Shown here one piece after another: positions 44,510-64,000 of a DNA stretch of 64,000 nucleotides (position 1 is the first letter of the stretch; each line of letters begins with the position of its first letter). The notes under the pieces were generated by a model that had not been told where the DNA came from, did not search any database, and was given only the letters and a program-made list of their open reading frames with translations. A program made the position numbers and the translations under genes. The stretch is from an uncultured Desulfurococcales archaeon (GTDB lineage Archaea > Thermoproteota > Thermoprotei_A > EX4484-217-1), in assembly GCA_964526225.1 (NCBI GenBank), contig CAZGLL010000006.1:1328-65327 (forward strand). Reading direction: 5' to 3'.

Positions 44510-44661
44510 TTGCTGAAACCCCGGTAGCTGTACTGTTATAGTATTTGTATTCTGCGATGCTAATTTGCTGTTCCGCTTTGTGTTCTAGCAGGTACGAGTA
44601 TTTAAAAGTTAGCTGTGGTGTATTTGCTAACAGAGATAAAAATGTGAAGTAAAGGTAGGAA

Positions 44662-46828: not shown

Positions 46829-46840
46829 GATGACACCGCA

Positions 46841-47194
46841 TTATTGTATAGCAGCTCTTACTGTTGCTATACTATTGTCTGCTATTCCCTCTCTCTTTAA
46901 TTGCTCTAAATTACACCATACCTCATTTATAGGTACATTTTCATCTACTATTACTGAGAGTTTAAGTTTCCTCTTCCTGGCAACAACGATCTCTAAAGCA
47001 TTTGTAATGTTTAATTCCTTAGCTAATGATGGATTTATTTTAGCGAAACCCTCCTTAACATCAGATAGCGCTCTAGTTCTTATTCTTCTTTCGCGTTTCA
47101 CCTTTTCCTTACCTAAACTACCAGCAGGGGGGATAACAGCCACTAAGGCTTTAATGTCAAGCTTTTTCTCCTCTTTTCCCTCATTTTCAATCAT
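46841..47194 (-). CDS. Stand-alone double-psi beta-barrel (Cdc48-N-like) protein
   Basis: GFAKINPSLAKELNI...LEIVV...VDENVP...EVWCN...GIADNSIATVR mirrors Cdc48 Nn-domain spacing. Confidence 0.55.
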   Translation of the reverse strand: MIENEGKEEKKLDIKALVAVIPPAGSLGKEKVKRERRIRTRALSDVKEGFAKINPSLAKELNITNALEIVVARKRKLKLSVIVDENVPINEVWCNLEQLKREGIADNSIATVRAAIQ

Positions 47195-47270
47195 GGCTTA
47201 GAAACACCTACTTTACTAGACTAGCCTCTGAGTTTTTTACTTAAGATAGGGTCTATTTAAAATTTAAAAA

Positions 47271-49022
47271 CTACTTTTCAATAGGAACACCGAGATCTTT
47301 AAACTCTAAACGGTACTTTAGGTACTCGGGTATTTTAACGTAGATTTCTTCTATAGGTGCTCTAACTTGCTCCCATGTGTCTCTGTTCCTAATTGTAACA
47401 GTGTTGTCTTCCATTGTTTGGTAATCAACAGTTATTGCTAATGGAACACCTATTTCGTCCGCTCTCGCATATCTTCTCCCTATATTGCCTGATTCATCAT
47501 AAATAACTCTTAGTCCTTCCTTCTTAAAGTTCTCATAAATTTCTTTGGCTATGGAAACTAACGGTTCTTTACTTACGAGAGGAAACACAGCTAAACTTAT
47601 TGGTGCAATATCTCTTGGAAGTCTTAAAATAACTCTACCATTTTTCACAGTATAGGCGTACTCTAACGTAGCATATAGGAGTCTTTCTGCACCAAACGAT
47701 GGTTCAACAACGTGCGGTATGAATCTTTTGCCTTTAGCAATCTTTTTAACCTTAACTATTTTGAAGCACTCCGGTCCTAAACTTTTACCTGCTAATTCAA
47801 CATAGCCTTTAGCCTTAAGTTCGGCTAACATAACGTTTTTATCTTTTTTTGAGAAAGCATTAACTATTTTCCTACATTCTTCCTTAGAATATTCTTTCTC
47901 TAAAAGCTCCCTATTTATATCTAATTCCTCAACCAATATTTCTCTAGGTTCGTTAAACTGCTTATATACCGTAAGATCATTACCACTAAATCCCATATGT
48001 CTTGAAAGATCATAGTCGCTCCTATAAGAATGCCCAGCTACTTCTATCCAACCCCACCTAGAAACTTTAACTAGTTGGTCAAACGTTTGCGAAGAATAAT
48101 GAGCTCTTTCATGTGGAAGTTTGTCTTCAAACACTTGCTTATTTAAGGGTATTCCGAGTTCGTTAACGAATTTCTGTGCAAGCGCCATGAAGTATGCTAG
48201 CCACTCATTAACAATGTATCTTTTTTCAAGAGCTTCCTTAATGGTAACGGTGATGGGTTCTTTCTTCCCTTTAAGCTTATTTTCAGCTGTAATTAGTCTT
48301 ATTTCATCGTTTTCAACTTCGGAAATAAATGGACATTTAGGCTTTTCAGGGTCAAAGAAGAATTCTACTTCCATAATAGTGAATTCTCTTAGCCTAATAA
48401 CACCTTGTCTAGGCGATATTTCGTTCCTACCTACTCTTCCTATTTGCCCTATACCTAAAGGTATACGTCCTCTCATAGTGTCGTAAACTCTTTTGAAAGC
48501 GACGAACATTCCCTGGGCAGCTTCAGGCCTAATGAACCCTATGTTCTCACTATATGGTCCAATGGTTGTTCTGAAAAGTAAACTAAACGTTCTAACATCA
48601 CTTAATTGACCACCACATGATGGGCATTTGATGTTGTTTTCCTTAATAAGTTCCGTTAATTGCTGTGGCGTAAGTCCTTCAACGGATTTGCCTATTACAT
48701 CCTCAATTAAATGATCAGCTCTAAATTTTCTACCGCATCTTAAACATTCAACTATAGGATCTGTGAAATGCTCCAGATGGCCGCTTGCTTCTAAAACAGC
48801 TTTAGGCATTATCGCGGGTGATTCTATTTCAACAATGAAGTCTTGATGTTTAAGAATGAACCATTGCCTCCACTTATCCTCTATATTCTTCTTAAGAATG
48901 CTTCCTAAAGGGCCTAAATCTACAAATCCTGCAACTCCACCATATATTTCGTATGATTGCCAAAAGAACCCTCGCCTAACAGCTAGTTCTACTATTTTTT
49001 CGTAAAGATCTTTTTCTAACAA
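47271..49022 (-). CDS. glyS: Glycyl-tRNA synthetase (alpha2 type)
   Basis: RRGFFW, SGHLEHFTDP, RPEAAQG, FRNE-like RNEISPRQGVIRLREF, HVVEPSFG, IGRRYARADEIG. Confidence 0.97.
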   Translation of the reverse strand: MLEKDLYEKIVELAVRRGFFWQSYEIYGGVAGFVDLGPLGSILKKNIEDKWRQWFILKHQDFIVEIESPAIMPKAVLEASGHLEHFTDPIVECLRCGRKFRADHLIEDVIGKSVEGLTPQQLTELIKENNIKCPSCGGQLSDVRTFSLLFRTTIGPYSENIGFIRPEAAQGMFVAFKRVYDTMRGRIPLGIGQIGRVGRNEISPRQGVIRLREFTIMEVEFFFDPEKPKCPFISEVENDEIRLITAENKLKGKKEPITVTIKEALEKRYIVNEWLAYFMALAQKFVNELGIPLNKQVFEDKLPHERAHYSSQTFDQLVKVSRWGWIEVAGHSYRSDYDLSRHMGFSGNDLTVYKQFNEPREILVEELDINRELLEKEYSKEECRKIVNAFSKKDKNVMLAELKAKGYVELAGKSLGPECFKIVKVKKIAKGKRFIPHVVEPSFGAERLLYATLEYAYTVKNGRVILRLPRDIAPISLAVFPLVSKEPLVSIAKEIYENFKKEGLRVIYDESGNIGRRYARADEIGVPLAITVDYQTMEDNTVTIRNRDTWEQVRAPIEEIYVKIPEYLKYRLEFKDLGVPIEK

Positions 49023-49120
49023 CTCCTTAGCACCGTGGACAACATTATGTTAATATGGTGCTAACTACTACTAAAAATAACGCTACTAAAAATACTTATG
49101 CTCATAGGGGGTTGATGCAC

Positions 49121-50020
49121 ATGGTTAAAATGGACATTTACATTTCAAATGAGAGAAGGGTTTTCGGCGGTTTCACCGTACCGTATGAGAAAGCAAAGTA
49201 CATTATACTAGGTGTCCCTTTTGAACACTCCCTAACCTATAAGACCGGTACTAGTATTGCTCCATTTCGTGTAAGAGAAGCTTCAGAGGCCATAGAGTCA
49301 TTCTCTCTAAGAGCAAAGTACGACTTTGACAAATGCCCTGTAGCTGATGTTGGGGACGTAGTGGTTGTACCAGGTGATGTTCATCAGACACTTTCGCGTA
49401 TTTCTAATGTAGTAGAAAACCTCGTTAATGATGGAAAAATCCCTGTACTCATTGGCGGAGAACATACAATTACCTACGGTGTTATTAGGGCTCTTAGAAA
49501 GCATAGTCCATGTGTAATAGTGTTCGATGCGCATTTTGATTTGAGAGACAAGTATTTAGGTTACAAATTCTCTCATGCCTCAATTATGAGGAGAATATGT
49601 GAAACATTAGGTACAAGAAAAATGATGTTCATTGGTGTTAGAGGATTTAGTGAGGAAGAATATGTCTATGTTAGGCAGAGAAACATAGCTTATGTTACAA
49701 GCGTTCAATTGTTAAATGAATCTAAAGCAGCATTGAAAATTATAAGGAGCTTCTTAAATAACTGTAGAAAAACATATGTTACCATAGACATGGACGTTTT
49801 CGATCCCTCATATGCTCCAGGTGTTGACAATCCTGAGCCAGAGGGAATTACACCGACAATATTCTTTGACATATTATTTAACATCATAGACAATAGAACT
49901 ATAGGCTTAGATGTTGTAGAAAGTTCACCATTAGTAGATGTTAATGATGTTACGAGCGTTTTAGCTGCTAAAGTTATTAAAGAAGCAATAATTTATCACT
50001 ATGTTAAAACATTTAAATGA
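49121..50020 (+). CDS. speB: Agmatinase (ureohydrolase family)
   Basis: GGEHTIT, DAHFDLRD, SHAS, TIDMDVFDPSYAPGVDNPEPEG. Confidence 0.93.
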   Translation: MVKMDIYISNERRVFGGFTVPYEKAKYIILGVPFEHSLTYKTGTSIAPFRVREASEAIESFSLRAKYDFDKCPVADVGDVVVVPGDVHQTLSRISNVVENLVNDGKIPVLIGGEHTITYGVIRALRKHSPCVIVFDAHFDLRDKYLGYKFSHASIMRRICETLGTRKMMFIGVRGFSEEEYVYVRQRNIAYVTSVQLLNESKAALKIIRSFLNNCRKTYVTIDMDVFDPSYAPGVDNPEPEGITPTIFFDILFNIIDNRTIGLDVVESSPLVDVNDVTSVLAAKVIKEAIIYHYVKTFK

Positions 50021-50176
50021 TTAAATAGCCTTTACCCTTCTAATCTTAGGAGGCCTAACTTTATAAAGAATCTTTGCACCACAGTATGGACATCTTATCC
50101 CCGGCAAAATCTCTAGCTCTTTAGTGTCAATTATTCTTCCACAGTTAGCACACTTATACTTCACAGTCATGGACAT
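50021..50176 (-). CDS. rpo12: RNA polymerase subunit Rpo12/P (51 aa; absent from the ORF track)
   Basis: [13 protein letters not shown]...[25 protein letters not shown]. Confidence 0.93.
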
Positions 50177-50300
50177 TCTAAATATCCTCTTTGTAACTTC
50201 TCCGTTAAAAACGTGTTACATCTACTATAAAAATTTATAAGCTGTTTCATAAACATCTATTTCGTAGAAACTAAAATTTTAGGGTGGATGGTTTAAAAGA

Positions 50301-50618
50301 ATGTTTGAATTCGAAAACCTAGGTATAGGTGGAGGAGGTCTTCCACCAGAATTATTTCAGGAAATAGCTAAGGAAGAATTGCTGATACGTATAAGGGTTG
50401 AGAAGCGCAAATGGGGCCGTGAAGTAACGATAATTGAAGGTCTAAACGACCCATCCATTGATTTAAAGGAAATGGCTGCTAAGCTAAAGTCAAAACTTGC
50501 ATGTGGCGGTACAGCTAAAAATGGGAGAATAGAGTTGCAAGGAAATCATAAGGAACGTGTTAAGGAACTCTTAGTTGAAATGGGGTTTCCCGAGGAAAAC
50601 ATTATAATAGTTGATTAA
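50301..50618 (+). CDS. sui1: Translation initiation factor aIF1 (SUI1)
   Basis: [17 protein letters not shown]...[10 protein letters not shown]...IELQGNH. Confidence 0.95.
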
Positions 50619-50743
50619 GAATAGTTGGTGAGGGATAGTATTTTATCGCGGACAACAAGCAATATGCAGAAAAAGGGTAATTTAGTTATTATGTGTTATG
50701 TGAGCTAATCACACTTTAGCTTATTTTTTCATTTCTAAACTTT

Positions 50744-51694
50744 TCATTGTGGAGGTAATGGTACCTTAAGTTCTCTAACTAATTCTTTATATCTGTTCCT
50801 AACAGTCACTTCAGTTACTCCAGCTACTTGAGCTATTTCTTTTTGAGTTCTCCTTTCATCTTCTAGTAGTGAAGCAATATATATTGCGGCTGCTGCTAAA
50901 CCTGCAGGGTCTTTGCCAGCAGTTATTCCTTTCTCTTCAGCTCTCTTGAGAATTTCAGCAGCTCTTTTCATAACGCTACCGCTTAATCCTAGTAAAGCAC
51001 CTATTCTCGGAACATAGTCTATTGGATCAGCTATTGGAACTCTTAACTCAAGCTCTCTAAGCAATAACCTATAGCATCTAGCTACATCTTTCCTACCAAC
51101 CTTAGTGTACTTCACTATTTCATCAAGTGTTCTAGGAATCTTAAGCCTTCTACATGCAGCATATATTGCTGCTGCAACAACAGACTCTATACTTCTACCT
51201 CTCACTAGACCTTTTTCAACAGCTTTCCTATAAATTACAGCTGCTTCTTCTCTTACATTTCTAGGTAATCCTAGCTGTGAAGCTATTCTATCTAATTCAT
51301 TCATTGCTTGAGCAAGATTACGATCAATACTTGACTGTATCCTAGCTCTTATCTGCCACTTTCTCCAACGTAGGATTTCAAGTCTTCTCCTAGGTTCTAA
51401 ATGTCTTCCGAAAGCATCACGATCACGCCAATCAATAATAGTTGAGAGTCCTTTATCATGAACGGTTTGCGTTAAAGGTGAACCTACACGACTTCTCTTC
51501 TCTCTTTCTTCAGGAGTGAAAGCTCTCCATTCAGGGCCTTGATCAATTGCTTTCTCGCTAATAACGGTTCCACAATCTGCACATACATACTGACCACGTT
51601 CATGATCATAAATTATATTTGTACCTCCACAAACTGGACATTTCGTAATGGCTTCTCCAACATTTTTTTCAGCAGGAAAACCCGGACTAACCAT
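50744..51694 (-). CDS. tfb: Transcription initiation factor IIB
   Basis: CPVCG...CADCG Zn ribbon, [33 protein letters not shown]. Confidence 0.97.
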
Positions 51695-51827
51695 GTTTAA
51701 CCACCTTTAAACCTCATAAGTTAAACTTATATAGAATCCCACTTCTGCCTTAAGTCCTCTTATAAGTTATTTTATTTAAACTTTTCGGTAAAATTTATAA
51801 ATAATGCGTTGTGTAATGTAAACGGCG

Positions 51828-53378
51828 TTAAATATTATTTTCGGTTAGCTTAAGCAGTGTTTCCTTAACTTTAGAAACCCCTATAGCAACAATTAATCTT
51901 CCAAGCCTAGGACCATAGGGTTGACCTAGTAAGGCTTCGTAAAGTACCTTAAAGAGTTCTTTCGGATTAACATTATATTGCCTAGCTACTTCATACACTA
52001 GATTATGTATTTCAATATCCTTCATGTCCTCTCTTAATTTCTCAGCAAAGCTTCTTACAACATTTACGTGCTTACTTATTGGGGTGGGATTAAACTTAAC
52101 CCTATATTCTCTAGGAATAATATCTAATCTCACCCAATTCTCGACATATGTTCTAAGATTATCTATTTCTCTGGGGAAACCTAGTTTTTCTTTAACTACT
52201 TTCCAATCACCATATATTTGATATATAACCAGCACGTCTGTGAAGCTAACATGAAGTGATGCTTTCTCGGATTCTGAAGCAAGCATATAAGCATGTACTT
52301 TCTTAGCTAACCCTGCTTCCTTTACTTCAGCTTTCTTTTCGAAAATTAACCCTACATTTCTAAATTCCTCATAGAGGCTGAGTAAAAATCTTGGATCATC
52401 CTTAAAGTTCTTGTTTTCTTCAAGATCGCCTCTAAATAGGAAGTATTTTAGAACCTCCGGCGGAACTAGTGATAGAATATAGTTTAAGTCTCCTAAGCCC
52501 TTACTTTTACTCATCTTTCTTCCTTTAAGAAGTATGAAGCCATATTTGAATCCTATTGGCGGTTCTTTTCCGAAAAGCTTTCTGTGAATAGCTACCGCAG
52601 TATCCCAGCTCCCCCCTCTAGTGTGGTGATCTACACCTGCCCCTTCAACATCGACACCTAAGAAATCTTGCCTACTGGGCCAGTCTAATCTCCAAGCAAG
52701 CTTCCACATACGATCTCTTATCGCTACTTTACCTTTATACCCACATCCTTTAGCGTATCCTACGTCCTTATCACATACGTACTCTATCGTTCCTTCTAAA
52801 AGATTAAACCCTAGAACCCTTGTTGTTGCTATTTTACCGCATTTTTCACATATTGGAAGAGCAATGTCCTTCCATGACCGAGGAAGTTTTCTTAAGGACG
52901 TTTCTTCGAGAATTCTTTTAACAATATCTAGCCTTTCAGCAAAAAACACAAGGTAATCATCGTAAAATCCTTCGGAGTACAGCTCATTTGATCCTACGAT
53001 TTCATCTGGTTTAACACCGAACTCCTCCATAATCTTTGTTGTTTCCCAAAGAAAATGTTCACCATAGCTTCTATGACATCCATAAGGGTCAGGAACGTGT
53101 ACAAGAGGTTTTCCTAAATGGGGCTTTAACATTTCACTATATTCCCTAAGTGTTGCTGGAATACTGTCAAAAGCATCCATTATGTCGCCTACGAAAACAA
53201 AGTACGCATCAACCCCTCGTCTTCTAAGTTCTTTAACCAGAGCCCATGGATAAAGGAATTCGCAAACAGTACCTAAGTGAGGAGGACCGCTCGTTGTCAT
53301 TCCAGCAGCTACGACGATAGCTTTTCCCTTTTCTTTAACAACCTTGTCCGCTAATTTAACAACCCAATGTTCAACCAT
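51828..53378 (-). CDS. lysS: Class I lysyl-tRNA synthetase
   Basis: SGPPHLG (HIGH), KLAWRLDWP, GVDH, KMSKSKG. Confidence 0.93.
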   Translation of the reverse strand: MVEHWVVKLADKVVKEKGKAIVVAAGMTTSGPPHLGTVCEFLYPWALVKELRRRGVDAYFVFVGDIMDAFDSIPATLREYSEMLKPHLGKPLVHVPDPYGCHRSYGEHFLWETTKIMEEFGVKPDEIVGSNELYSEGFYDDYLVFFAERLDIVKRILEETSLRKLPRSWKDIALPICEKCGKIATTRVLGFNLLEGTIEYVCDKDVGYAKGCGYKGKVAIRDRMWKLAWRLDWPSRQDFLGVDVEGAGVDHHTRGGSWDTAVAIHRKLFGKEPPIGFKYGFILLKGRKMSKSKGLGDLNYILSLVPPEVLKYFLFRGDLEENKNFKDDPRFLLSLYEEFRNVGLIFEKKAEVKEAGLAKKVHAYMLASESEKASLHVSFTDVLVIYQIYGDWKVVKEKLGFPREIDNLRTYVENWVRLDIIPREYRVKFNPTPISKHVNVVRSFAEKLREDMKDIEIHNLVYEVARQYNVNPKELFKVLYEALLGQPYGPRLGRLIVAIGVSKVKETLLKLTENNI

Positions 53379-53483
53379 AAGCGCTTATTCACCTTAATTC
53401 TGGAAGGAATTCATGCGAACTAATAAGACCTCATACCTTATAAGAGTTACACTTAAAACTCACCTATAATTATTCTCTCTCGA

Positions 53484-53607
53484 AGCCGGGTCGTCTAGCG
53501 GTCAAGGATGCGGGGCTTTGGCCCTTACCTGACCGTCTAAAATTCGGGAGCGGTCAGGTAAGGGAAGACCCCCCGTGACCGGGGTTCGAATCCCCGCCCG
53601 GCTACCA
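53484..53607 (+). tRNA. tRNA-Gln(TTG) with 48-nt 37/38 intron (53522-53569), A1-U72 pair, CCA encoded
   Basis: AGCCGGG/CCCGGCT acceptor, CGGGG-CT-TTG-G|intron|C-CCCCG. BHB: CTTT pairs with GAAG. Confidence 0.95.
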
Positions 53608-53641
53608 TAACCAATAACTTTCTTCAAGGCGTAACTAGGCG

Positions 53642-54769
53642 ATGATAGATAATATTTTAGCTAAGATTAGGGCTAAAGACCCGTTCTACGATGATGGCCA
53701 TGTTCTTAGCAGTATGGTTTCTAAGCCCCTAGAAATTGCCGTTAAAGCGTTCTTACAATTCATAGATACTAATGCTGGAGATTATAGCATATTTAGAAAC
53801 TTAGCTAGGATGGAAAGATATGTTATCCGAAAGCTATCCATAATTCTCGGGTGTGAAAGTAAACGCTGTAGCGGATACATTGTGTCAGGCGGTTCGGAAG
53901 CAAACTTTTTATCACTATGGCTAATTAGGAATTTTAGTAAAAATGTCAAGGAGATAAGAAGGCCTGAAATAGTGGTTTCCCCCACAACACACTACTCAGT
54001 GATTAAAGCAGCCGATGCTTTAAATATAAAGGTGAAGTACGCTAGCTTAAATGAGAATTACAAAATGGATGTTTCTTCTGTTCCCGAGAAAATATCGAAA
54101 AACACAATAGCAGTAATAGGCAATGTAGGTTCTACAGAACTAGGCTTCGTAGATGACATACAAGCTCTTTCAAAAATAGCAAGTGAATATAATGTAGCAT
54201 TACATTTAGATGCAGCCTATGGAGGATTCATTCTGCCCTTCATAAATTCCCATATTTTCCCAGGTTTCCGTTGCGAAAACGTATTAACAATAACCTCAGA
54301 TCCCCATAAGACCCTTTTCACACCTATACCTTCGGGAGGGTTTTTCGTAAAAAACAAAGCTTTATTGAAATACATTAGATTTAAACCTAAATATCTTAGC
54401 AAAACACCTTCAGAAACACTTATTGGAACACGTTGCGGAGCCTCTATAGCAGCCATTTATGCTGTAATCCGCTTTGTAGGTCTGAATAAAATAGGTAAGA
54501 TTCATAAGAAATGCTATGAAAACGCATTATACTTTTACAATAAAATCGTTAAGTCAGGCTTATTCAAAACATTCGGTAAACCTGAAACCCCCATAGTATG
54601 TTTTAAACCCTACAGTGTTAATGTAAATGATGTTTTGAAAAAACTTAGAACTAAGGGATGGATTATTTATAGGTGCAACGTGGTTAATGGATTAAGAATT
54701 GTTTTCATGCCTCATGTAAGCAGAGAAGTAATAGATGAGTTCTTTAGTGACCTCCTAGAATCTGTTTAA
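53642..54769 (+). CDS. mfnA: PLP-dependent tyrosine/aspartate decarboxylase (group II)
   Basis: LSSM, SGGSEAN, HYSVIKAA, GSTELG, HLDAAYGG, SDPHK (PLP Lys), GTRCGA. Confidence 0.9.
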   Translation: MIDNILAKIRAKDPFYDDGHVLSSMVSKPLEIAVKAFLQFIDTNAGDYSIFRNLARMERYVIRKLSIILGCESKRCSGYIVSGGSEANFLSLWLIRNFSKNVKEIRRPEIVVSPTTHYSVIKAADALNIKVKYASLNENYKMDVSSVPEKISKNTIAVIGNVGSTELGFVDDIQALSKIASEYNVALHLDAAYGGFILPFINSHIFPGFRCENVLTITSDPHKTLFTPIPSGGFFVKNKALLKYIRFKPKYLSKTPSETLIGTRCGASIAAIYAVIRFVGLNKIGKIHKKCYENALYFYNKIVKSGLFKTFGKPETPIVCFKPYSVNVNDVLKKLRTKGWIIYRCNVVNGLRIVFMPHVSREVIDEFFSDLLESV

Positions 54770-54860
54770 TATGTTTTATTTCCTTCCTAATGACATAGGC
54801 TGATGCTGTTGAAGATGTTATTTCCTCTTCATATCCGCATCTAGGACATTTAGCATAGGT
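54770..54860 (-). repeat. Exact 91-bp copy of an internal part of tfs (58918-59008)
   Basis: tatgttttatttccttcc...tttagcataggt is identical at both loci and encodes TYAKCPRCGYEEEITSSTASAYVIRKEIKH on the minus strand. Confidence 0.95.
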
Positions 54861-55054
54861 TCTCTGTTAGAAAGCCTCATTAATTCGGCGAAAATTATTG
54901 GCATGAAAATATCATTTATTGCGATTTGTAGTTCAGCTATAGTTGCTTGCTCATAACTCCATATATGGCTTAGATCCCGTACAATAATTATTGTTGCAAA
55001 AATAATGGGAACAGTCATTACGGCGATAATTACAATATCATACATTAAGATCAA
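54861..55054 (-). pseudogene. 3'-truncated PsiE-like membrane protein, fused out of frame to the tfs fragment
   Basis: Two TM segments and ...INDIFMPIIFAELM, then an abrupt switch to tfs-derived sequence at 54860. Confidence 0.5.
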
Positions 55055-55102
55055 TAATCTACCGTTTTATGTATGAAAATAGTTATGAAAAATAGCATAG
55101 TT

Positions 55103-56851
55103 TTATTCTTCTACTATGTAGTTTGGTACTATTGGTGGTAGGTTTGTTTTCTTTGCGTAGAGTTCATTTATTACTCTATGTAGAATTATTAGCAATAATA
55201 TTCCTACCGGTAACAGTATTAGTGGTGTTGTTATTCCGATAGCATATAGTAAGTATAGTATTATTCCTACACTTGCTGCTAGGATAGCGTATGGTATTTG
55301 GGTGTTAACGTGGTCTATGTGGTCTGCTCCGCTGTACATTGAGGACATTATAGTCGTATCGCTTATTGGGCTACAGTGGTCTCCGAAAATCCCCCCTGAG
55401 AAAACTGCTGCAATAGATGCGTAAGTTACTAAGTAAGCCATGTCGAGACTTTCCGGGTACTGCTGTAGTGCAAGTTTCCAAGCTAACGGTATAGCTAGTG
55501 GCATCATAATACCGAATGTTCCCCAGCTTGTACCTGTCGTGAAAGAGATGAACATTGATGCTAGAAATATTACTAATGGTGCTACTAAAGCCGATACCCT
55601 AGCCGATACAGCAGCACTTACTACGAAATCCGCAGTTCCAACAGCATCCACAGCGCTCTTAATACACCATGCTAGCACCATTACTGTATTTGCAAAAACC
55701 ATCAAATACATTCCTCTAATAGTATACTCCATGGCCTTCGAAAACGAAAGCGACCTATACATTAGTGTAAAGGCTAAAGCAAGAACATATGCGATGAAGC
55801 TTCCCCACAGCAATGCTGTTGCGGAATCAGCATTCATTAATGCTTCACCGAATGGAATAGTCCACCATTCAGCCACGCCTGCACCAGTATACCACATTCC
55901 AAGCAATGTTACTACGACCAGGGCTAGCACTGATACTGCGAACACCCATGGGGGAGTTATTTTTTCAGACCTAGGTTCGCCCAGTACTGTTTCAGTAGGC
56001 ATTAATGGTTGAGCACCGTCACGTAGAACTTTTCCTTCTTTAACAACTCTATGTTCTGCTTTAAGCATTGGACCGAAATGTCTTCTCGTAAGAACAACTA
56101 GTAGTACTAGGATAATTGCTAGGATAGAGTAAAATCTGAAAGGCACAGAGGATAGCCATGCTGCATATGGACCTATTGTTGGAGCTACCTTTAAGACACC
56201 TTCGCTAACCTCTTCTGTTAGCGAATCAAACGCGTCCTGTATCAGACCAACCTCATAACCTATCCATGTTGACACTATTGCTAACCCAGCTACAGGCGCT
56301 GCTGTTGAATCAACAATGTAGCTTAGTAGTTCACGGCTAACTCTTGACCTATCCGTTAGAGGTTTTGAAGCATTTCCGACAATGATGGTATTAGTATAGT
56401 CATCGAAGAATATTATTACTCCTAGTAACCAAGAAATAAAGCTTGCTCCTTTAGCGCTTCTCACCTTCCTACTAATTGCTTTAGCTAAAGCATGCATTGA
56501 ACCTGAGGCATATAGTAAACCAATAAACGCTCCCACAACGAAGTTGAACACTATTATTGTTGCATTCCATGAGTCCGTAATATTTTCAACAATCCATGCG
56601 AGGCTTTGTCCTGTGGCATTTATTGGGTTATACCCGGTAGCCATTAATGCGCCAATCCATATACCTGCGAAAAGTGCTGGCAGTACTTGTCTTGTAACAA
56701 TAGCCAACACTATAGCTAATATTGGCGGTAGAAGAGGAAATATAACATAAGGTCTTTCTGGCGTTGGCCCACTATACGCCAGTAGACTGATTATTAAAAT
56801 CATAACAACAGTTATGATTTTAACCATATTTGACGGCTTCATAAAATCCAC
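55103..56851 (-). CDS. NhaC-family Na+/H+ antiporter-like (probable amino-acid) transporter
   Basis: IFFDDY, YIVDSTAAPV, SFTTGTSWGT, FGDHCSPISDTTIMSS, DHIDHVNTQIPYA. Confidence 0.92.
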   Translation of the reverse strand: MDFMKPSNMVKIITVVMILIISLLAYSGPTPERPYVIFPLLPPILAIVLAIVTRQVLPALFAGIWIGALMATGYNPINATGQSLAWIVENITDSWNATIIVFNFVVGAFIGLLYASGSMHALAKAISRKVRSAKGASFISWLLGVIIFFDDYTNTIIVGNASKPLTDRSRVSRELLSYIVDSTAAPVAGLAIVSTWIGYEVGLIQDAFDSLTEEVSEGVLKVAPTIGPYAAWLSSVPFRFYSILAIILVLLVVLTRRHFGPMLKAEHRVVKEGKVLRDGAQPLMPTETVLGEPRSEKITPPWVFAVSVLALVVVTLLGMWYTGAGVAEWWTIPFGEALMNADSATALLWGSFIAYVLALAFTLMYRSLSFSKAMEYTIRGMYLMVFANTVMVLAWCIKSAVDAVGTADFVVSAAVSARVSALVAPLVIFLASMFISFTTGTSWGTFGIMMPLAIPLAWKLALQQYPESLDMAYLVTYASIAAVFSGGIFGDHCSPISDTTIMSSMYSGADHIDHVNTQIPYAILAASVGIILYLLYAIGITTPLILLPVGILLLIILHRVINELYAKKTNLPPIVPNYIVEE

Positions 56852-57165
56852 CTATTGATTATACATAATTTTTTGATTTCAATAATATAAAAACCTTGTT
56901 ATATGGTTATTATAAGAGCCTTGTTTGGCTTAACTAATAGAACAAAGCATTAAAACCTATTGTAACATCAGCTATTAGTGCTTAATTCTATTTGAATACA
57001 CCAAGTAATAAAATACCCTATAATTAAATTATTTATGAATACATTTCAGGTTCTGCACCAATTTACATATTCGTAAATCCTCACGTCCTACCTTTATAAG
57101 CTAAAAATGTTTAAACAAAATACATAATATCCGCATGTAACATATTTAGTTAAGGGAATTATGTA

Positions 57166-58245
57166 ATGTCTGGGCACTCTTTTTATTCTAAAAAGGAAGT
57201 TCTCGAAATAGTTTATAAATATACTGAAAACAGAAAGGTACCAGCTCATCCACTTCCCTTATCGTATCTTGATGAGTTAGAAGTTATTTGGGGAAAACGT
57301 TGGGGAGCTCAATCTGAGATAGGGAAGCTAAGGGAGGTTATGGTAATTAGACCAGGCGATGAAGTAGCTCCCCCAGAGGAAGACCTTGTTTTCTACCAAT
57401 TTGAGAAAAGAGTAGATGTTGAAAAAGTTAAGAGAGAATTTGAGGGTTTAATTGAAGCCATGCAGAAAGAAAATATTAAGGTTTACGATATCAGAGAGCT
57501 TTTAAGAACCGAAATGGATATTGATGAATGGATGCTTAAAGAACCATATGGTCTCCCCCATGCTAGGTTTGGTGGTCCAGGGGCTAGAGATGTAGGGTTA
57601 GTGGTTAATGGAGGAGCAATTATAGGTAGAATGTCTCTCCCATATAGACGGGGAGAAGAGTATGTTACGATGAAAGCATTAGCTAAATTGGGGGTACCAA
57701 TTCTATATACAATTAATGGTAACGGTCTATTTGAAGGAGGTAATGTAGTATGGCTTGACCCAAAACATGTTATTATAGGGAAAAGCATCAGAACAAACCA
57801 AGAAGGCATAGACCAAGTTTCATATATTTTGAAACGTTGTGGAGTCGAAGAAATATATGTAGTTCCCATTCCCGGATACCTATATAACACAAAATGGCCT
57901 GCTGGAGGATTTGCCCATCTTGATTGTGTCTTTGGATATGTTGATGACGGTCTAGCCGTTATATATCCTCCCGGTGTACCGTACGAGTTCATCGAGTATT
58001 TAAGAAGCAAAGACATAAATTTAGTTGAAGTACCACCTAATGAAGCGAGATGGTTAGCATGTAATACGTTAGCGTTAGAACCAGGAAAAATTATTCTTCC
58101 GCAGGAGTTTAAAGAAACAATACGTGCTCTTGAAAGAGAAGGAGTTGATATTATCGCAATACCATGGGAAGAGAGCAAATACCTAGGTGGGGGACCGCAC
58201 TGCTCAACCCTACCTTTAATAAGAGATCCAGGTCCCAAGCTCTAA
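57166..58245 (+). CDS. Amidinotransferase / arginine deiminase / DDAH-family enzyme
   Basis: SEIGKLREVMV, RD, FEGGN, HLDC, GGGPHCSTLPL (catalytic Cys). Confidence 0.88.
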   Translation: MSGHSFYSKKEVLEIVYKYTENRKVPAHPLPLSYLDELEVIWGKRWGAQSEIGKLREVMVIRPGDEVAPPEEDLVFYQFEKRVDVEKVKREFEGLIEAMQKENIKVYDIRELLRTEMDIDEWMLKEPYGLPHARFGGPGARDVGLVVNGGAIIGRMSLPYRRGEEYVTMKALAKLGVPILYTINGNGLFEGGNVVWLDPKHVIIGKSIRTNQEGIDQVSYILKRCGVEEIYVVPIPGYLYNTKWPAGGFAHLDCVFGYVDDGLAVIYPPGVPYEFIEYLRSKDINLVEVPPNEARWLACNTLALEPGKIILPQEFKETIRALEREGVDIIAIPWEESKYLGGGPHCSTLPLIRDPGPKL

Positions 58246-58410
58246 ATATTTTTATCTAAACTATGTTCGAGCTTTTATCATTAATTTTCATCAACTAATT
58301 ATTAAAGAAATCTAGAGGTAGTCAAACCCCCTCGTCTCGTATATCTTGTAAGAATACCCCTCATATCGATAAACCCAGTATCAACTAAGTACATTGATTT
58401 ATTTAGTAGG

Positions 58411-58445
58411 CTCTGCGACCGAGGTTGAACCCCGCCCGATTATCA
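58411..58445 (+). repeat. Decayed copy of the tRNA-Gln 3' exon (attR-like)
   Basis: 28 of 37 positions match 53571-53607 (7 transitions, 2 single-base deletions); similarity continues into the 3' flank (cataacc...cttcttc). Confidence 0.8.
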
Positions 58446-58465
58446 TAACCTTAGCTTCTTCTTTA

Positions 58466-58708
58466 ATGACATATAAGCTCTTTCAAAAATACCAAGCAAA
58501 TATAGTGATTTTAGTTGCAACTTCTGAAGAATTTATTTATCCTTCATAAATTCCCGCATTTTCAGACTTCCATTGCAAAAACATATTAGTAATAGCCTCA
58601 GATCCTCATAAAATCCTCTTCACACCTTTACCTTTCGGAGGGTTTTTCGTAAGAGACGAAGTAGAAGATATGTTCCATAGTAACCTCTTAGAAGCCATTG
58701 GTGTTTAA
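58466..58708 (+). pseudogene. Decayed mfnA paralog with large deletions
   Basis: 58591-58652 matches 54289-54350 at 54 of 62 nt (DPHK motif); in-frame TAA; C-terminal EVEDMFHSNLLEA matches EVIDEFFSDLLES. Confidence 0.85.
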
Positions 58709-58717
58709 GGTCTTATT

Positions 58718-59065
58718 TCACTCATACTCTCTCCAAGTATAACCACATTTCGTACATCTGTAAAATCTCGTAGGAGGTTCATCAGCAGCCCTAGTCTGCA
58801 TCATCCACACATATGCTTCCCTATTACCACATTTAGGGCATTCAACACCTTTAGCAATAGATGCTATTCTAGGCATTTTCACATTCTCATCAATAACCAC
58901 TATTTTCTCCTTATCTGTATGTTTTATTTCCTTCCTAATGACATAGGCTGATGCTGTTGAAGATGTTATTTCCTCTTCATATCCGCATCTAGGACATTTA
59001 GCATAGGTCCTTTTATTTTTCCTATGTGGAACCATTATACTACCGCATTTAGGGCAGAATCTCAT
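58718..59065 (-). CDS. tfs: Transcription factor S (transcript cleavage factor)
   Basis: Two Zn ribbons (CPKC..CPRC; CPKC..CTKC) and the acidic QTRAADEPPT hairpin. Confidence 0.95.
   Translation of the reverse strand: MRFCPKCGSIMVPHRKNKRTYAKCPRCGYEEEITSSTASAYVIRKEIKHTDKEKIVVIDENVKMPRIASIAKGVECPKCGNREAYVWMMQTRAADEPPTRFYRCTKCGYTWREYE
58918..59008 (-). repeat. Source copy of the 91-bp repeat, inside tfs
   Basis: Identical to 54770-54860. Confidence 0.95.
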
Positions 59066-59175
59066 AATGCAGTAACACCTCGCTAATGCTTAGTAACTAC
59101 TGAGACTACATTAGTACGTGTTGTTTTACATAAAGTTTATTGTTTACCCGATAGAGGAACAATATAGCGATAGCT

Positions 59176-60444
59176 ATGGAGTCATGCTTCATTAAAGGCT
59201 ATAAGCAAATATACGATGAAGTACATGGCTACATAGAATTTACAGAATCTGAGGAGAAAATAGTCAATAATCCATATTTTCAAAGGTTAAGAAACATAGC
59301 ACAGCTTAGTTTAACGTACTACATATATCCTGGAGCATCTCATACACGCTTTAGCCACTCAATAGGAGTAAAGCATGTTTCGGGAAAAATAGGAGAAATT
59401 CTTTGTAAACAAGGTTTCCTTTCACGTGATGAACTTAAGCTAATAAGGCTAGCTGGACTACTACATGATATAGGCCATTACCCGTTTTCACACATTCTCG
59501 AACACTCCTTTAAGGAACTTGGAGGACTAACCCATGAGGAACTTGGGGAGAAAATAATAACTGAAACTTCTATAAGCGATTCACTAAAGGCTGAAGGATA
59601 CAGTCCTAAAGAAATAGCAGATATTGCGAGAGGCAAACATAAAAATAAACTATACAACATGATTTTATCTTCAGATGTTGACGCCGATAGACTAGATTAC
59701 TTACTTAGAGATTCAATGCATACAGGAGTAGCCTACGGAAACATCGATGTTGAAAGAATAGTTAATACAATAACCGTTGATAATAATGGAAACCTGGCGG
59801 TTCTTAGGAAAGGATTGGAATCCATAGAAAACCTGTATGTTGCTCGCTTACACATGTACAGAAGCGTTTACATGCATAAGTCAGTTGTAAGTTTCGAACT
59901 CATGCTTTCAAGAGCATACACCATTCTTTATCGGAAAATAGGGTCACAGGAGGGAATAATAGGGCCCAAGGAACTTAATGAAATCCTTAATTCTGAAGAA
60001 TTCGTGTTCTTCGATGACCACTATGTACTCAATGTTTTAAGGAAATATAGGAAAGATAGGAGATTAAGTAATGTTGAGAGAAAACTTTTCGAAATGATAT
60101 TGTTTAGAAGACCTTTAAAAACGGTTTTCAATGAAAGTAGTTTTTCAAAAGCAGAAATTAAGCGTAAACATCAACAATTAATGGAGTGTTTCAGAAATAT
60201 AGAAGACTCTGATGCAACTAACTCTACAATGGTATACTATGGTGAAATCGAATTCTTCTCTAAAAAGAACGCTATTTCCGTTGTTGATAAGCCAAGGGAA
60301 AGCGGAATTCCCATTTATAATTTAAAAAAGATCACTCTACTTAGCCTACTTCCGACAGTATATGCGGTACTTAGGGTTTACACGTTTCCCGAGAAATCTA
60401 CCGAAGTGAAGAACATAATTAGTAATTGTTTCGGAAAATCATAG
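59176..60444 (+). CDS. HD-domain phosphohydrolase (SAMHD1/dNTPase-like)
   Basis: IYDEVHG, FQRLRNIAQL, HTRFSHSIG, LLHDIGHYPFSH, DADRLDYLLRDS, VYMHK. Confidence 0.92.
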   Translation: MESCFIKGYKQIYDEVHGYIEFTESEEKIVNNPYFQRLRNIAQLSLTYYIYPGASHTRFSHSIGVKHVSGKIGEILCKQGFLSRDELKLIRLAGLLHDIGHYPFSHILEHSFKELGGLTHEELGEKIITETSISDSLKAEGYSPKEIADIARGKHKNKLYNMILSSDVDADRLDYLLRDSMHTGVAYGNIDVERIVNTITVDNNGNLAVLRKGLESIENLYVARLHMYRSVYMHKSVVSFELMLSRAYTILYRKIGSQEGIIGPKELNEILNSEEFVFFDDHYVLNVLRKYRKDRRLSNVERKLFEMILFRRPLKTVFNESSFSKAEIKRKHQQLMECFRNIEDSDATNSTMVYYGEIEFFSKKNAISVVDKPRESGIPIYNLKKITLLSLLPTVYAVLRVYTFPEKSTEVKNIISNCFGKS

Positions 60445-60527
60445 GTTAAAGAAAAATATTAGCAAGAATAAAGTAATATATTGCCTCCGTAGAAGTGCTC
60501 AATAATATCTATTAGGTGTTAGAAATT

Positions 60528-62060
60528 ATGGAAACTACAGGTATGTTATTAGCTGTTAAAGTTCTCGATGTTGATACCGGAAAAGTTAGAACAGTAATTA
60601 TAAATTCTGATGATGCTTCCTTTAAAACCATTAAACCTTACGATAGAGTTAGGATTTCCTTTGGTGATAAGTCAAGAACGGCTATGGTTTTTACATCGAA
60701 AACCATTGTTAAAAGAGGCTATGTTGCAATACCTAGATCTTTAGCGAATGAGCTAGGGGTTAAGGAGGGAGATAGAGTAGGAGTGAAAGTAATTACGCAA
60801 CCGCTTTCTCTAAGCTACATAATTAAGAAACTTAATGGAGAAAAACTTCTTCCCGAAGAAATACGTGCGATAATAAAGGATGTTGTCGACGGTAACCTAG
60901 GAGATGTAGAAATGGCTGCTTTCCTTTTAGCACAATATTTCCACGGAATGAGCTCTGAAGAACTTGAATCACTAATTAGAGCTATGGTTGATACCGGAGC
61001 TAAAATCGAGTTTGAAGAACCAGTACATGATGAACATAGTATCGGTGGCGTTCCTGGAAATTCAAAAGTAGCCTTACTAACCGTTTCCACAGTAGCCTCG
61101 ACAGGATTACTAATACCTAAGACAAGCAGCAGAGCAATAACAAGCCCTGCCGGAACCGCAGATACAATGGAGATTTTCGCTCCTGTATCGTTCTCTCCAA
61201 CAGAAATAAAGGAAATAGCTACTAAAACTAAAGGCTTAATCGCATGGGGTGGTGCTTTAGATTTAGCTCCAGCCGATGACATATTCATACATGTTGAGCA
61301 TAGGTTAATGATAGATCCGCAAACACAAACGGTCGCTAGTATTTTAGCGAAAAAATTAGCAATGAGCGTATCATACCTCGTAATTGATATTCCTGTAGGT
61401 AAGGGAGCAAAAGTTGAATGTATGGATAAAGCTGAAAAGCTTGCCTCATTATTCCTAGACCAAACAGCTAGACTAGGCATTAAAGCTAAATGCGCTATAA
61501 CATATGGAGGACAGCCAGTAGGTTACTACATAGGGCCAGCGTTGGAAGCTAAAGAAGCCCTAGAATCTATGATCAATAGAAAAGGTCCTGGAAGTCTTAT
61601 TGAAAAAGCACTAGGTATTGCTGGTTTACTTTTCGAATTAACGGGTAAAGCGAAAGCGGGAACGGGGCTGGAATATGCTAAGGAACTGTTCTATAAAGGC
61701 AAAACCTATGAAAAATTTAAGGAAATAGTTGAAGCACAAGGAGGAAATCCAAATGTTAAACCAGACGATTTACCTGTAGGAGATAAAACAATAACTTTCG
61801 ATGCACCAACAGATGCCTATGTAACACATGTTGATAATACAGCAATAACCCTTATAGCTAGAGCAGCAGGAGCACCATTAGATAAGGGAGCTGGTGTTAG
61901 AATTCATGTTAAAGCCGGAGATAAGGTAAAGAAAGGAGACCCACTATATACAATCTACGCTGAATCATCAACAAAACTATCGCAAGCCTATTCTTTGTCG
62001 TTGAAGCTTAAACCTATAACTCTTGAAGGAATGATTTTAAAGGCAATACCAGAGTACTAG
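60528..62060 (+). CDS. AMP phosphorylase (thymidine phosphorylase family)
   Basis: N-terminal DPBB-like domain, HSIGGVPGNSK, PKTSSRAITSPAGTADTME, LAKK, RAAGAPLDKGAG. Confidence 0.93.
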   Translation: METTGMLLAVKVLDVDTGKVRTVIINSDDASFKTIKPYDRVRISFGDKSRTAMVFTSKTIVKRGYVAIPRSLANELGVKEGDRVGVKVITQPLSLSYIIKKLNGEKLLPEEIRAIIKDVVDGNLGDVEMAAFLLAQYFHGMSSEELESLIRAMVDTGAKIEFEEPVHDEHSIGGVPGNSKVALLTVSTVASTGLLIPKTSSRAITSPAGTADTMEIFAPVSFSPTEIKEIATKTKGLIAWGGALDLAPADDIFIHVEHRLMIDPQTQTVASILAKKLAMSVSYLVIDIPVGKGAKVECMDKAEKLASLFLDQTARLGIKAKCAITYGGQPVGYYIGPALEAKEALESMINRKGPGSLIEKALGIAGLLFELTGKAKAGTGLEYAKELFYKGKTYEKFKEIVEAQGGNPNVKPDDLPVGDKTITFDAPTDAYVTHVDNTAITLIARAAGAPLDKGAGVRIHVKAGDKVKKGDPLYTIYAESSTKLSQAYSLSLKLKPITLEGMILKAIPEY

Positions 62061-62614
62061 AGAGACACTTTTTTCAACAAAAATATTTTACCGTCACTTG
62101 CCGCAATAACTTCCACATCACGGTTAACATAAGCCCAACCTACTGTTGCACAAACAATGGCATCTAAAATGTCTTTACTTAGTTTTTCCAAAACAACATC
62201 ACCTAGGTTAATGTATTTTGAAAGAGCATCCTTGACACTATTTAATCCTGTGTTTTTAAGTGCGCTTCTAGGATGTGTTTCTAAGACTTTTATCCCCCTT
62301 TTCTCACAGTAATCCTTAATCTTTAATGCTCTAAAAACAAGCTTTCTCATACCCTTCCAACTTGGAGGAAGCACTTTAAATCCTCTCTTAATCATTTCCC
62401 TATCAACTTCCCTAAACCCCTTGGACATAGAGAGCGGAGCATCTATTACAACAACTTGGGGTTTAAGCTTTCTAACAATGTACTCAATTTCCTCATCACC
62501 GTGGACTATTCCGTATTCTACAAGAACACCGTCTATAACTATAGCGTAACCTGTGGGGTTCTTAGGGGATCCTGAAAGGTCAAGACCTAGAATTCTCCAT
62601 TCCCTAAACATCAT
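62057..62614 (-). CDS. DUF429 family RNase H-like predicted nuclease
   Basis: GLDLSG, IDAPLS, FREVDR, ETHP, DAIVCA. Confidence 0.85.
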   Translation of the reverse strand: MMFREWRILGLDLSGSPKNPTGYAIVIDGVLVEYGIVHGDEEIEYIVRKLKPQVVVIDAPLSMSKGFREVDREMIKRGFKVLPPSWKGMRKLVFRALKIKDYCEKRGIKVLETHPRSALKNTGLNSVKDALSKYINLGDVVLEKLSKDILDAIVCATVGWAYVNRDVEVIAASDGKIFLLKKVSL

Positions 62615-63113
62615 GCTTCCCCAACATTTTTTCTAAGATGTGCTTTAAATCATAAAAGTCTTTGACGTCAACGTTCATTTGGATAAAAACTACATCTCCA
62701 ATTTCCTTAAGCACTTCGTTTAAGTGCGTTTTTCTATCATCAACATAAACTATTTCACATGGTTCAACTGTTAACTTATACTTTTCAAAAGCTTTCTTCA
62801 TCATTTTACCTTTGTGAGGATGGAATTCAATACAATGGCCATCAAAGAGCTCGTATATTCCAAATGCTTTCAATGCTTCATAAGCTATTTCGGGGATGTT
62901 CCAGCTTAAACTGTAAACCTTCAATCCAACGCTCTTAGCCCATTTTAAGAACTCTATAACGCCCGGTTTTAGCTTCACAAGAGAACCTTCACTATCAATT
63001 ATTTCGAAATCACTTACCCTTTTAAATGGTGGTTTATGCAATGAAATATCGTGAGAAGACCATACTGTTCCGTCTAGGTCTAAGAATACCACTTTTGGCG
63101 AACATTTAACCAT
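62604..63113 (-). CDS. Magnesium-dependent phosphatase 1 (HAD family)
   Basis: LDLDGTVW, SLSWN, HPHK, YVDDR. Confidence 0.9.
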   Translation of the reverse strand: MVKCSPKVVFLDLDGTVWSSHDISLHKPPFKRVSDFEIIDSEGSLVKLKPGVIEFLKWAKSVGLKVYSLSWNIPEIAYEALKAFGIYELFDGHCIEFHPHKGKMMKKAFEKYKLTVEPCEIVYVDDRKTHLNEVLKEIGDVVFIQMNVDVKDFYDLKHILEKMLGKHDV

Positions 63114-63672
63114 AAGCTTCCCTCGATTTTGAAATTATTTCATTGACTTCGTCTGCTATTTTGGATAGAGGTTCGTTCTTAATAAGTTCCTTAATTTCCT
63201 TCAGTGTGTTATTGATTATCTCTTCTACTCTAGAATATCCGTTGGCTAAATATCTTTTACCTTGAATATGGGTTGCAAGTATTTCAGCTAACCTCGCAAC
63301 TTTAGCTTCATAAGTTTTTAACTCATTAAATTCCCTAACTAGGCTAGCTATTTCGCCGCCAAAAGCTTCTGTAGAAACTTTTTCCTCAAAATCCCTTGTC
63401 CTAACTATAGCGTCTTTTACATACTTAACAATGTCCCCTGTAATAGCCTCCGGTAAATCATGAAATAACGCAAGCACCGCTGCCTTATTAATATTAATAT
63501 TTACACCCTTATCTCTAAGCTTACTAGCTAAATAAAAAGCTAAAATCGACGCTTCAAAAGAATGCCCAGCTACAGTTTCCCCTATAGATGCCGGGATTCC
63601 GCGAAGCATCCAACCAGTTCTAACAGTGTTCTTTACTGCTTCAAGAGACTTAAGTAGTGTTTCAATACCCAT
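63106..63672 (-). CDS. HD-domain protein (YfbR/HDDC2-like 5'-nucleotidase)
   Basis: RTGWMLRG...ETVAGHSF...ALFHDLPEAITGDI. Confidence 0.88.
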   Translation of the reverse strand: MGIETLLKSLEAVKNTVRTGWMLRGIPASIGETVAGHSFEASILAFYLASKLRDKGVNININKAAVLALFHDLPEAITGDIVKYVKDAIVRTRDFEEKVSTEAFGGEIASLVREFNELKTYEAKVARLAEILATHIQGKRYLANGYSRVEEIINNTLKEIKELIKNEPLSKIADEVNEIISKSREAYG

Positions 63673-63828
63673 TAAATTACCCCCTATTGTACCGTTTACC
63701 TTTTAATAACACTATCTATTAATGATTACGATTTTAATATCTGTAACAATGTTTAGAAATAATTTATATAGTCTAGAAGGTTTCTTAAACAACAACATTA
63801 CACGATAAAGGCATAGGTGATTTCAATT

Positions 63829-64000
63829 TTGAATAAGCGTAAGGCTATATTGCTTGCTTCAGCCCTAGCCTTCTTTTAATACTCGCTTTAGTTCCTTTAA
63901 CAATAGCTTACTTAAGCATACATCCAAATGGCTAAAATACAAGTATGAATTACCAGAGCTCCTAGGAAGTACGGTTAGCTTCTGGGGCAAAGTATTTACA
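63829..64000 (+). pseudogene. Possible disrupted secreted/membrane protein, cut by the window end
   Basis: SD AGGTGA plus TTG; a signal-peptide-like N-terminus is broken by a one-base frameshift and further stops. Confidence 0.35.

Follow-up and report, generated by a model that had tools for sequence, protein, structure and literature searches.

How does a tRNA gene come to be followed by two incomplete copies of the same neighboring genes, with foreign DNA between them? The question is raised by the tRNA-Gln locus at positions 53484 to 59065 of a 64,000-nucleotide (nt) stretch of DNA, here called the window, from an uncultured Desulfurococcales archaeon of a hot environment (contig CAZGLL010000006.1 of assembly GCA_964526225.1). 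An earlier note on this DNA had described a module consisting of the tRNA 3' end, the decarboxylase gene mfnA, and the transcription factor gene tfs as present twice around a block of cargo genes, and this description was borne out: every piece of the degenerate (ghost) copy scored above 2,000 shuffled sequences, and the pieces proved colinear with their intact counterparts. Each copy of the module retains a different working part, the tRNA and mfnA upstream and tfs downstream, and the foreign insert between the two partial copies of neighboring host genes amounts to 3.6 kb. The feature, a tRNA-linked islet that has decayed and has captured flanks, is genuine, though rather ordinary as relics of insertion go. 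With moderate confidence, we read it as the degenerate remnant of a duplicative insertion at the tRNA-Gln locus that has no integrase left.

The upstream copy begins with the intact tRNA-Gln(UUG) gene on the forward strand (53484-53604; Rfam RF00005, 47.5 bits against a gathering score of 29), which has the anticodon loop CUUUGGC and, at the canonical 37/38 position, a hairpin intron of about 51 nt (fold z = -5.4). ARAGORN missed this intron-containing gene, while Rfam detected it; its exons are identical across all relatives. There follow, on the same strand, an intact mfnA-type gene (53642-54769) for a pyridoxal phosphate (PLP) decarboxylase of 375 amino acids (aa) and, on the reverse strand, an internal fragment of tfs (54770-54866, about codons 17 to 49) with both gene ends absent. 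The cargo comprises orf78 (54818-55054, reverse strand), a gene for an NhaC-family (Na_H_antiporter) membrane transporter (55103-56851, reverse; Pfam PF03553, 2e-62), and a gene for a guanidino-group-modifying enzyme of the ADI/DDAH superfamily (57166-58245, forward; Pfam ADI, 3.6e-25, below the family cutoffs), here called the deiminase-like protein. After a spacer of 165 nt (58246-58410) come the ghost of the tRNA-Gln 3' exon with 8 nt of downstream sequence (about 58411-58450, forward), the ghost mfnA (58451-58708, forward), and the intact tfs (58718-59065, reverse). The latter is convergent with mfnA and encodes transcription factor S of 115 aa (TIGR01384, 112.8 bits with a cutoff of 64.75; Pfam Zn_ribbon_TFIIS and RPB9). 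The composition profile of the window showed nothing distinctive, and the promoter and terminator scans, which used bacterial consensus patterns, are uninformative here.

The state of the locus before the insertion is seen in relatives. Ten related loci (L001, L002, L003, L164, L165, and L167 to L171) have the order lysyl-tRNA synthetase (LysRS), tRNA-Gln, one mfnA, a convergent tfs, and an HD protein gene, with no cargo at all, just as the earlier note had predicted for close relatives. This cargo-free arrangement with a single mfnA is the ancestral state. The loci L001 (from the Thermoprotei metagenome-assembled genome [MAG] AUK086), L165, L167, and L169 to L171 constitute what we call clade A; L168, L164, and the more distant Desulfurococcales MAGs L002 and L003 lie outside it. 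The insert is absent from close relatives and, as shown below, foreign.

The structure could in principle be an artefact of metagenome assembly, a chimeric join of strains or organisms, and chimeras do arise at this cassette. One megahit contig (L083:11550-15571; ENA ERZ27248349 k141_267336) differs from the window by two single-nucleotide polymorphisms (SNPs) in 11.9 kb until about position 55500, inside the NhaC gene, where it switches partner; beyond that point it is 99% identical to an organism of the co6_547 type (L084). The assembler probably produced a chimera here at the cassette that both have in common, and the right end of this contig was excluded from all inference. Its alternative interpretation as a second strain with a longer island was rejected on the same 99% identity of its right part to a co6_547-type genome. 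For the window itself an artefact is nevertheless highly improbable, because a SPAdes contig from a different sample (L166; 43.9 kb, 70x coverage) covers every junction and is 99.992% identical to 50718-64000. The megahit contigs L082 and L083 independently hold the right and left junctions, respectively, the former joining NhaC, the deiminase-like gene, the ghost, tfs, and the HD gene. Furthermore, the junction between mfnA and the tfs fragment skips 200 nt of tfs, which makes a repeat-mediated misjoin impossible, and a ghost only 78% identical to the intact gene is no assembly product.

The repeat that frames the island corresponds to the tRNA-Gln 3' exon plus 8 nt downstream, located at about 53570-53612 in the left copy. 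Positions 53577-53612 align with 58417-58450 at 30 of 36 identities plus two 1-nt deletions, a score reached by none of 2,000 shuffles, and the ghost mfnA pieces likewise stood above all 2,000, so that the whole ghost alignment (58411-58708), on which the earlier note had staked its reading, was clearly better than that of shuffled sequence. Over the 36 nt that align firmly, and at which no relative varies, the ghost tRNA piece shows four substitutions and two deletions. Its first nucleotides correspond to the beginning of the 3' exon, the DNA on its upstream side is unrelated, and the insert is bounded by a direct repeat of the 3' part of the tRNA gene. In the spacer that precedes the ghost, positions 58246-58326 are common to other contexts of the cassette (those of the L252 type, described below), and 58327-58410 are orphan sequence; no similarity to the tRNA introns of relatives was found anywhere in 58246-58410.

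The tRNA-Gln intron itself differs between lineages. It is a hairpin of about 50 nt in the window, L001, and L167 and only about 25 nt long in L002 and L003. The tRNA-Gln(UUG) gene of L169 (L169:7319-8062; ENA ERZ27245482 k141_379297), by comparison, has an intron of about 670 nt at position 37/38, with complementary terminal arms and an open reading frame (ORF) for a LAGLIDADG homing endonuclease of 201 aa on the strand opposite to the tRNA. A remnant of such a LAGLIDADG-type intron is present at L165:1098-1424. Homing-endonuclease genes are known from archaeal rRNA introns; we found no literature report of one in a tRNA intron. A homing endonuclease in the window and an intron remnant upstream of the ghost tRNA were looked for and not found.

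How did the two copies of mfnA come to differ? The intact gene passes the MfnA equivalog model TIGR03812 (tyrosine/aspartate decarboxylase; 351 bits, cutoff of 299), matches Pfam Pyridoxal_deC, and keeps the PLP-lysine motif SDPHKT; in non-methanogens, MfnA is expected to function in the synthesis of beta-alanine and CoA. Compared with it, the ghost is short of about 520 nt at the 5' end and of a further 355 nt or so in the interior. What remains is a central part (58458-58661, about codons 165 to 240) that is 78% identical to 54145-54359 (E = 9e-44) and the last 17 codons with the stop (58656-58708). The ghost carries one CAA>TAA stop and four small indels, and its catalytic motif DAAYGG is destroyed. 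The differences from the intact copy affect 22 of 81, 17 of 84, and 14 of 83 sites at codon positions 1, 2, and 3 (27, 20, and 17%), and those from the mfnA of L165 affect 20 of 83, 17 of 86, and 13 of 85, with no excess at third positions (p = 0.25). Because the differences are spread evenly over the codon positions and the catalytic motif is gone, the ghost decayed neutrally and did not diverge under selection, contrary to the suggestion in the earlier note that the two copies had drifted apart while both were still coding. The mutation spectrum of the ghost is broad, with 29 transitions among 42 changes, 21 of the changes being GC>AT and 12 AT>GC; clustered cytosine deamination, considered as a cause of the changes, was rejected on this ground.

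The different C termini, which had been taken as another sign of divergence, have a simpler origin. All relatives encode an MfnA of 376 or 377 aa with a long end of the form ...LLE(V/A)Ixx* (e.g., ...LLEVISM), and the ghost also encodes such an end, ...LLEAIGV*, followed by the ancestral spacer and tfs; it thus keeps both the long C terminus and the ancestral junction. The intact copy alone ends in ...LLESV*, its last two codons and the stop being derived from the junction. Its odd C terminus is an artefact of the fusion to the middle of tfs.

We then compared the origins of the two copies. Between the window and clade A, the proportion of synonymous differences (pS) was 0.17-0.18 for the intact mfnA, 0.38-0.40 for LysRS on the left flank, and 0.39-0.48 for tfs and 0.54-0.63 for HD on the right flank. 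The value for mfnA was lower than that for LysRS (p = 5e-8) and for tfs (p = 3e-4), and each of the flanking genes on both sides (43829-53378 and 58718-62057) had a pS of 0.35-0.65; in other lineage pairs, the mfnA/tfs ratio of pS was about 1. The ghost, however, turned out to be no more distant from clade A than the intact copy: at third positions it differed at 13 to 19 of 85 sites (15-22%, its own decay included), while about 36% would be expected for a resident gene as diverged as the backbone and decayed in addition (p = 4e-5 to 0.009). In the site patterns, the ghost had some 30 to 41 private changes, clade A had 2, and the intact copy, its junction excluded, had 3; each of the three pairings of ghost, intact copy, and clade A had 1 to 3 shared-derived sites. 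Since these patterns form a star, the two copies come from essentially the same allele, and the incoming one would be indistinguishable by sequence.

Mosaic values of pS occur in other pairs as well: L168 versus clade A gave 0.11 for tfs and 0.25 for mfnA, and L002 versus L003 gave 0.08 for mfnA and 0.28 for tfs. These comparisons show frequent recombination between lineages at the locus, with mfnA exchanged between them. The mfnA of AUK086 (L001:10001-11129) goes out of frame through a deletion of 1 nt and an insertion of 5 nt (P0049 and P0058), and the same frameshifted tail is encoded by an independent JGI contig; this gene is either a lineage pseudogene or a shared assembly error. No position on any contig was found for the protein P0063.

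The tfs fragment tells of a different age. Positions 54770-54863 match 58918-59011 at 93 of 94 sites (99%), and the fragment abuts the mfnA stop codon, a deletion of 200 nt having fused mfnA to mid-tfs. The fragment possibly begins already at 54760, in which case the junction would include the microhomology ATCTGT and 5 nt of filler (TTAAT) from which the TAA stop is formed. At all eight sites that set the window's tfs apart from that of L165, the fragment has the window-specific nucleotide, which identifies it as the window's own type. The ghost and intact mfnA differ at 53 of 248 sites and the fragment and tfs at 1 of 94 (p = 2e-7); private substitutions number about 30 in 248 sites of the ghost mfnA and none in 94 of the fragment (p = 6e-5). 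A single integration event, as originally proposed, would not be sufficient to explain a fragment of 99% identity beside a ghost of 78%. The idea that the ghost is a backbone-diverged resident with little decay, which would account for this discrepancy, was ruled out by the codon-position counts given above.

The differences between the fragment and tfs lie only at the extreme edges of the fragment. At its right edge there are two, where TTCTC, the ancestral sequence, survives in the fragment and tfs itself has changed twice within 5 nt; at the left edge, a strain SNP falls at 54773 (fragment position 4), one of only two SNPs in 11.9 kb. Because the differences are confined to the edges, as predicted for a short repeat, the near-identity of the fragment was most likely maintained by gene conversion with tfs. 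Alternatively, a later repair event may have copied a patch of tfs.

Where did the cargo come from? Its closest known counterpart is in a different genus. The NhaC-family transporter is 93% identical in amino acids (92.6% in nucleotides) to that of L084 and the deiminase-like protein 94% in amino acids, and over 55191-58255 the window is 90-93% identical in nucleotides to the NhaC-deiminase pair of L084 and L172. The latter two belong to the same contig as L003, the backbone of which is only about 73% identical to the window; the pS between the window and L084 was 0.17 for NhaC and 0.65-0.75 for backbone genes. Because such high identity of the pair contrasts with so distant a backbone, the NhaC-deiminase-like pair was clearly acquired horizontally. 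Against the arginine deiminase models TIGR01078 and NF002381, the deiminase-like protein scored 83-92 bits, with cutoffs of 414-489, and its best match in the PDB was a 2-nitroimidazole nitrohydrolase (1.5e-18). The protein is predicted to be a member of the ADI/DDAH superfamily only, not assignable to arginine deiminase. The third cargo ORF, orf78 (75 aa according to the gene callers), is a hydrophobic orphan whose 3' end enters the tfs fragment out of frame. It had no match in Pfam, PHROGs, or NCBIfam, formed a protein cluster of one member, and may not be a real gene; a 60-nt inverted match links its region to L253:27-86.

The surroundings of the cassette in other genomes are worth describing. 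In L084, the NhaC-deiminase pair adjoins a HicB-like gene, and tRNA-Pro(UGG) lies 2.5 kb away. Clade A has a 39-nt fragment (L167:18295-18333; compare L084:14291-14367), 97% identical to the 3' half of tRNA-Pro(UGG), beside a HicB-like antitoxin gene downstream of an ARMT1-like gene, and this region is 91% conserved in the strain of the window (L082:7316-8954). The tRNA-Pro fragment marks a further remnant of an integrated element, some 9 kb downstream of tfs. The loci L252 (1593-9966), L253, L254, and L255, from three other datasets, contain a related NhaC-deiminase cassette (82-88% nucleotide identity); behind it lie a truncated TraG/VirD4-like ORF, ORFans of odd composition, genes for ribbon-helix-helix proteins, and three intron-containing tRNA genes. 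This context looks like a degenerate conjugative or integrated element of another archaeon. The homology of the window to the L252 type continues for 80 nt beyond the deiminase-like gene, into the spacer. The orphan flanks of the cargo (54864-55102 and 58246-58416), when compared by BLAST with all fetched loci, matched only their own strain, apart from partial matches to L252 and L253. The NhaC-deiminase cassette is thus exchanged between lineages and has more than once come to rest next to the remains of mobile elements. Within the cassette, the divergent intergenic region between the two genes (56852-57165 in the window, L084:9593-10000) contains an indel of about 80 nt, while the last 73 nt before the start of the deiminase-like gene are 96% conserved between the window and the L084 type and are, because of this conservation, probably the promoter of that gene.

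Our preferred reading assembles these data as follows. A circular DNA would have carried the acquired cassette (orf78, the NhaC-family transporter, and the deiminase-like enzyme) together with a host module extending from the tRNA-Gln 3' exon through mfnA to about codon 18 of the convergent tfs. The circle would have recombined with the chromosome in the Campbell fashion, the order of att, mfnA, truncated tfs, cargo, att, mfnA, and tfs being the reason to regard the locus as such a product. The crossover may have been site specific, in the tRNA 3' half, by a tyrosine recombinase acting in trans or since lost, or else homologous, within the shared module. Either way, two copies of the module would have come to lie around the cargo and been resolved reciprocally, the upstream one keeping the tRNA and mfnA and losing most of its tfs piece, and the downstream one keeping tfs, with neutral decay of its mfnA and its tRNA half. 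The module would have come from the same lineage or a very close relative, hence the lack of detectable xenology, and the 94-nt tfs fragment would later have been homogenized with tfs, most likely by gene conversion.

How does the islet compare with known systems? Gene capture by elements of the SSV/pNOB8 type has reportedly been described by She et al. (2001 and 2004). Archaeal tyrosine recombinases usually act at the 3' part of tRNA genes, where att sites usually lie (PMC8371274), and partial tRNA copies are a standard flank of integrated elements, such as PYG1 at tRNA-Gln(TTG) of Pyrococcus yayanosii (PMC9897764); degenerate, immobilized remnants are common in archaea (PMC9897764, PMC8371274). 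Like PYG1 and other tRNA-gene islands, the one studied here has foreign DNA bordered by an intact tRNA gene on one side and by a direct repeat of that gene's 3' part on the other, and it is absent in relatives. Unlike PYG1 and the SSV- and pNOB8-type elements, it lacks an integrase, whole or partitioned, and element genes, and it further departs from tRNA-gene islands in that its repeat is not an att core alone but spans 1.5 kb of host genes (mfnA with part of tfs) and in that its insert is only about 3.6 kb long, with two recognizable cargo genes of an ordinary metabolic or transport kind. For flanking host genes captured by imprecise excision, as in specialized transduction, and then re-integrated, the Campbell model predicts exactly the order found: an att site, the flanking gene, a truncated next gene, and element DNA, then a second att site with the flanking gene and the next gene; in the window, however, captured and resident copies are indistinguishable by origin, phage or plasmid functions are lacking, and one junction resembles break repair. 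The retention of a different working part by each copy, with a tfs repeat 99% identical and differing at its edges only, is as in reciprocal degeneration with gene conversion. Unlike degenerating tandem duplicates, though, this duplicate arose through insertion of foreign DNA, and the evidence for conversion is indirect.

Several observations weigh against our reading. Searches of the island with Pfam, PHROGs, and NCBIfam revealed no integrase, excisionase, replication, conjugation, or virion gene in it, and no mobility gene adjoins it. Neither an intact nor a split integrase (int(N)/int(C)) was found in the orphan flanks of 239 and 165 nt, which are too short for one and without homologs, or in the other contexts of the cassette (L084 and L252 to L255), and a search of viral contigs with the deiminase-like protein and orf78 returned no relatives. 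The att-like repeat is short and decayed, and the argument from its boundary is post hoc. The microhomology and filler at the mfnA-tfs deletion look more like break repair than site-specific recombination, and the age discrepancy between the ghost and the tfs fragment demands an extra assumption, either gene conversion or a second event. Of the claim that an element with captured flanks had integrated at tRNA-Gln, the geometry, the boundary at the 3' exon, and the foreign cargo therefore stand, while a mobility gene to go with them is missing; because no recombinase is present, we infer rather than observe integration by an integrase.

The original form of that claim, in which a foreign captured mfnA took over after integration and the resident gene decayed following a coding phase, would fit the topology, since site-specific integration in the tRNA 3' half makes the upstream, intact copy the incoming one, and the intact mfnA is indeed about twice as close to clade A as both flanks. 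Such xenologous displacement is nonetheless improbable: the ghost is just as clade-A-like at its third positions, the site pattern is a star with 2 to 3 shared-derived sites per pairing, neither the codon positions nor the C terminus speaks for a coding phase, and the tfs fragment joined to the supposedly incoming mfnA is the window's own type at all 8 diagnostic sites. A possible, though unlikely, account invokes two unrelated events, an old partial duplication or integrated element that left the ghost and a cassette that replaced the interior much later, with a tfs patch of about 94 nt copied at the repair junction. It would explain the age gap (12-20% decay of the ghost, 0-1% of the fragment), the truncation of the fragment at both ends within tfs, and the filler and microhomology at its left junction. 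It needs more events, however; the ancestral TTCTC retained where tfs changed speaks against a very recent copy and for a homogenized interior, and a pS of 0.17 between the cargo and its nearest known relatives does not suggest a very recent arrival.

Repair of a double-strand break without an integrase is also unlikely but deserves attention. A break at the boundary between the tRNA-Gln intron and the 3' exon would have been joined at one end to foreign DNA, while the other end copied the 3' exon, mfnA, and part of tfs from the sister chromosome before a template switch; the breaking enzyme could have been the LAGLIDADG homing endonuclease encoded within this intron of close relatives. In its favor are the endonuclease-bearing intron of L169 and the remnant in L165, the start of the ghost at the intron/3'-exon boundary, the ATCTGT microhomology and 5-nt filler typical of such repair, and the lack of an integrase. 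Against it, the window lacks both a homing endonuclease gene and any trace of the intron ahead of the ghost, the LAGLIDADG cleavage site is assumed, as is the operation of the mechanism in archaea, and an att site explains the boundary equally well. The more specific proposal that the island was seeded without an integrase by a LAGLIDADG break at this boundary, the repair of which captured foreign DNA and duplicated the downstream genes, strikes us as quite doubtful.

The locus shows clearly, in a natural case, how DNA inserted at a tRNA gene can duplicate the host genes beside it, each copy of which then loses a different part. It also illustrates why phylogeny must be consulted before a mobile element is credited with replacing a gene; here that test revealed two near-identical copies and no foreign takeover. 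Two by-products of the analysis may outweigh the island itself: a transporter-deiminase-like cassette that is mobile among Desulfurococcales and lands time and again beside element remnants, and the LAGLIDADG-bearing tRNA-Gln intron in sister lineages. If a LAGLIDADG break did seed the island, tRNA genes would owe their role as island hotspots not only to integrases but, by a second route, also to mobile tRNA introns, and such breaks could explain why the exchange of mfnA between lineages exceeds that of its flanks.

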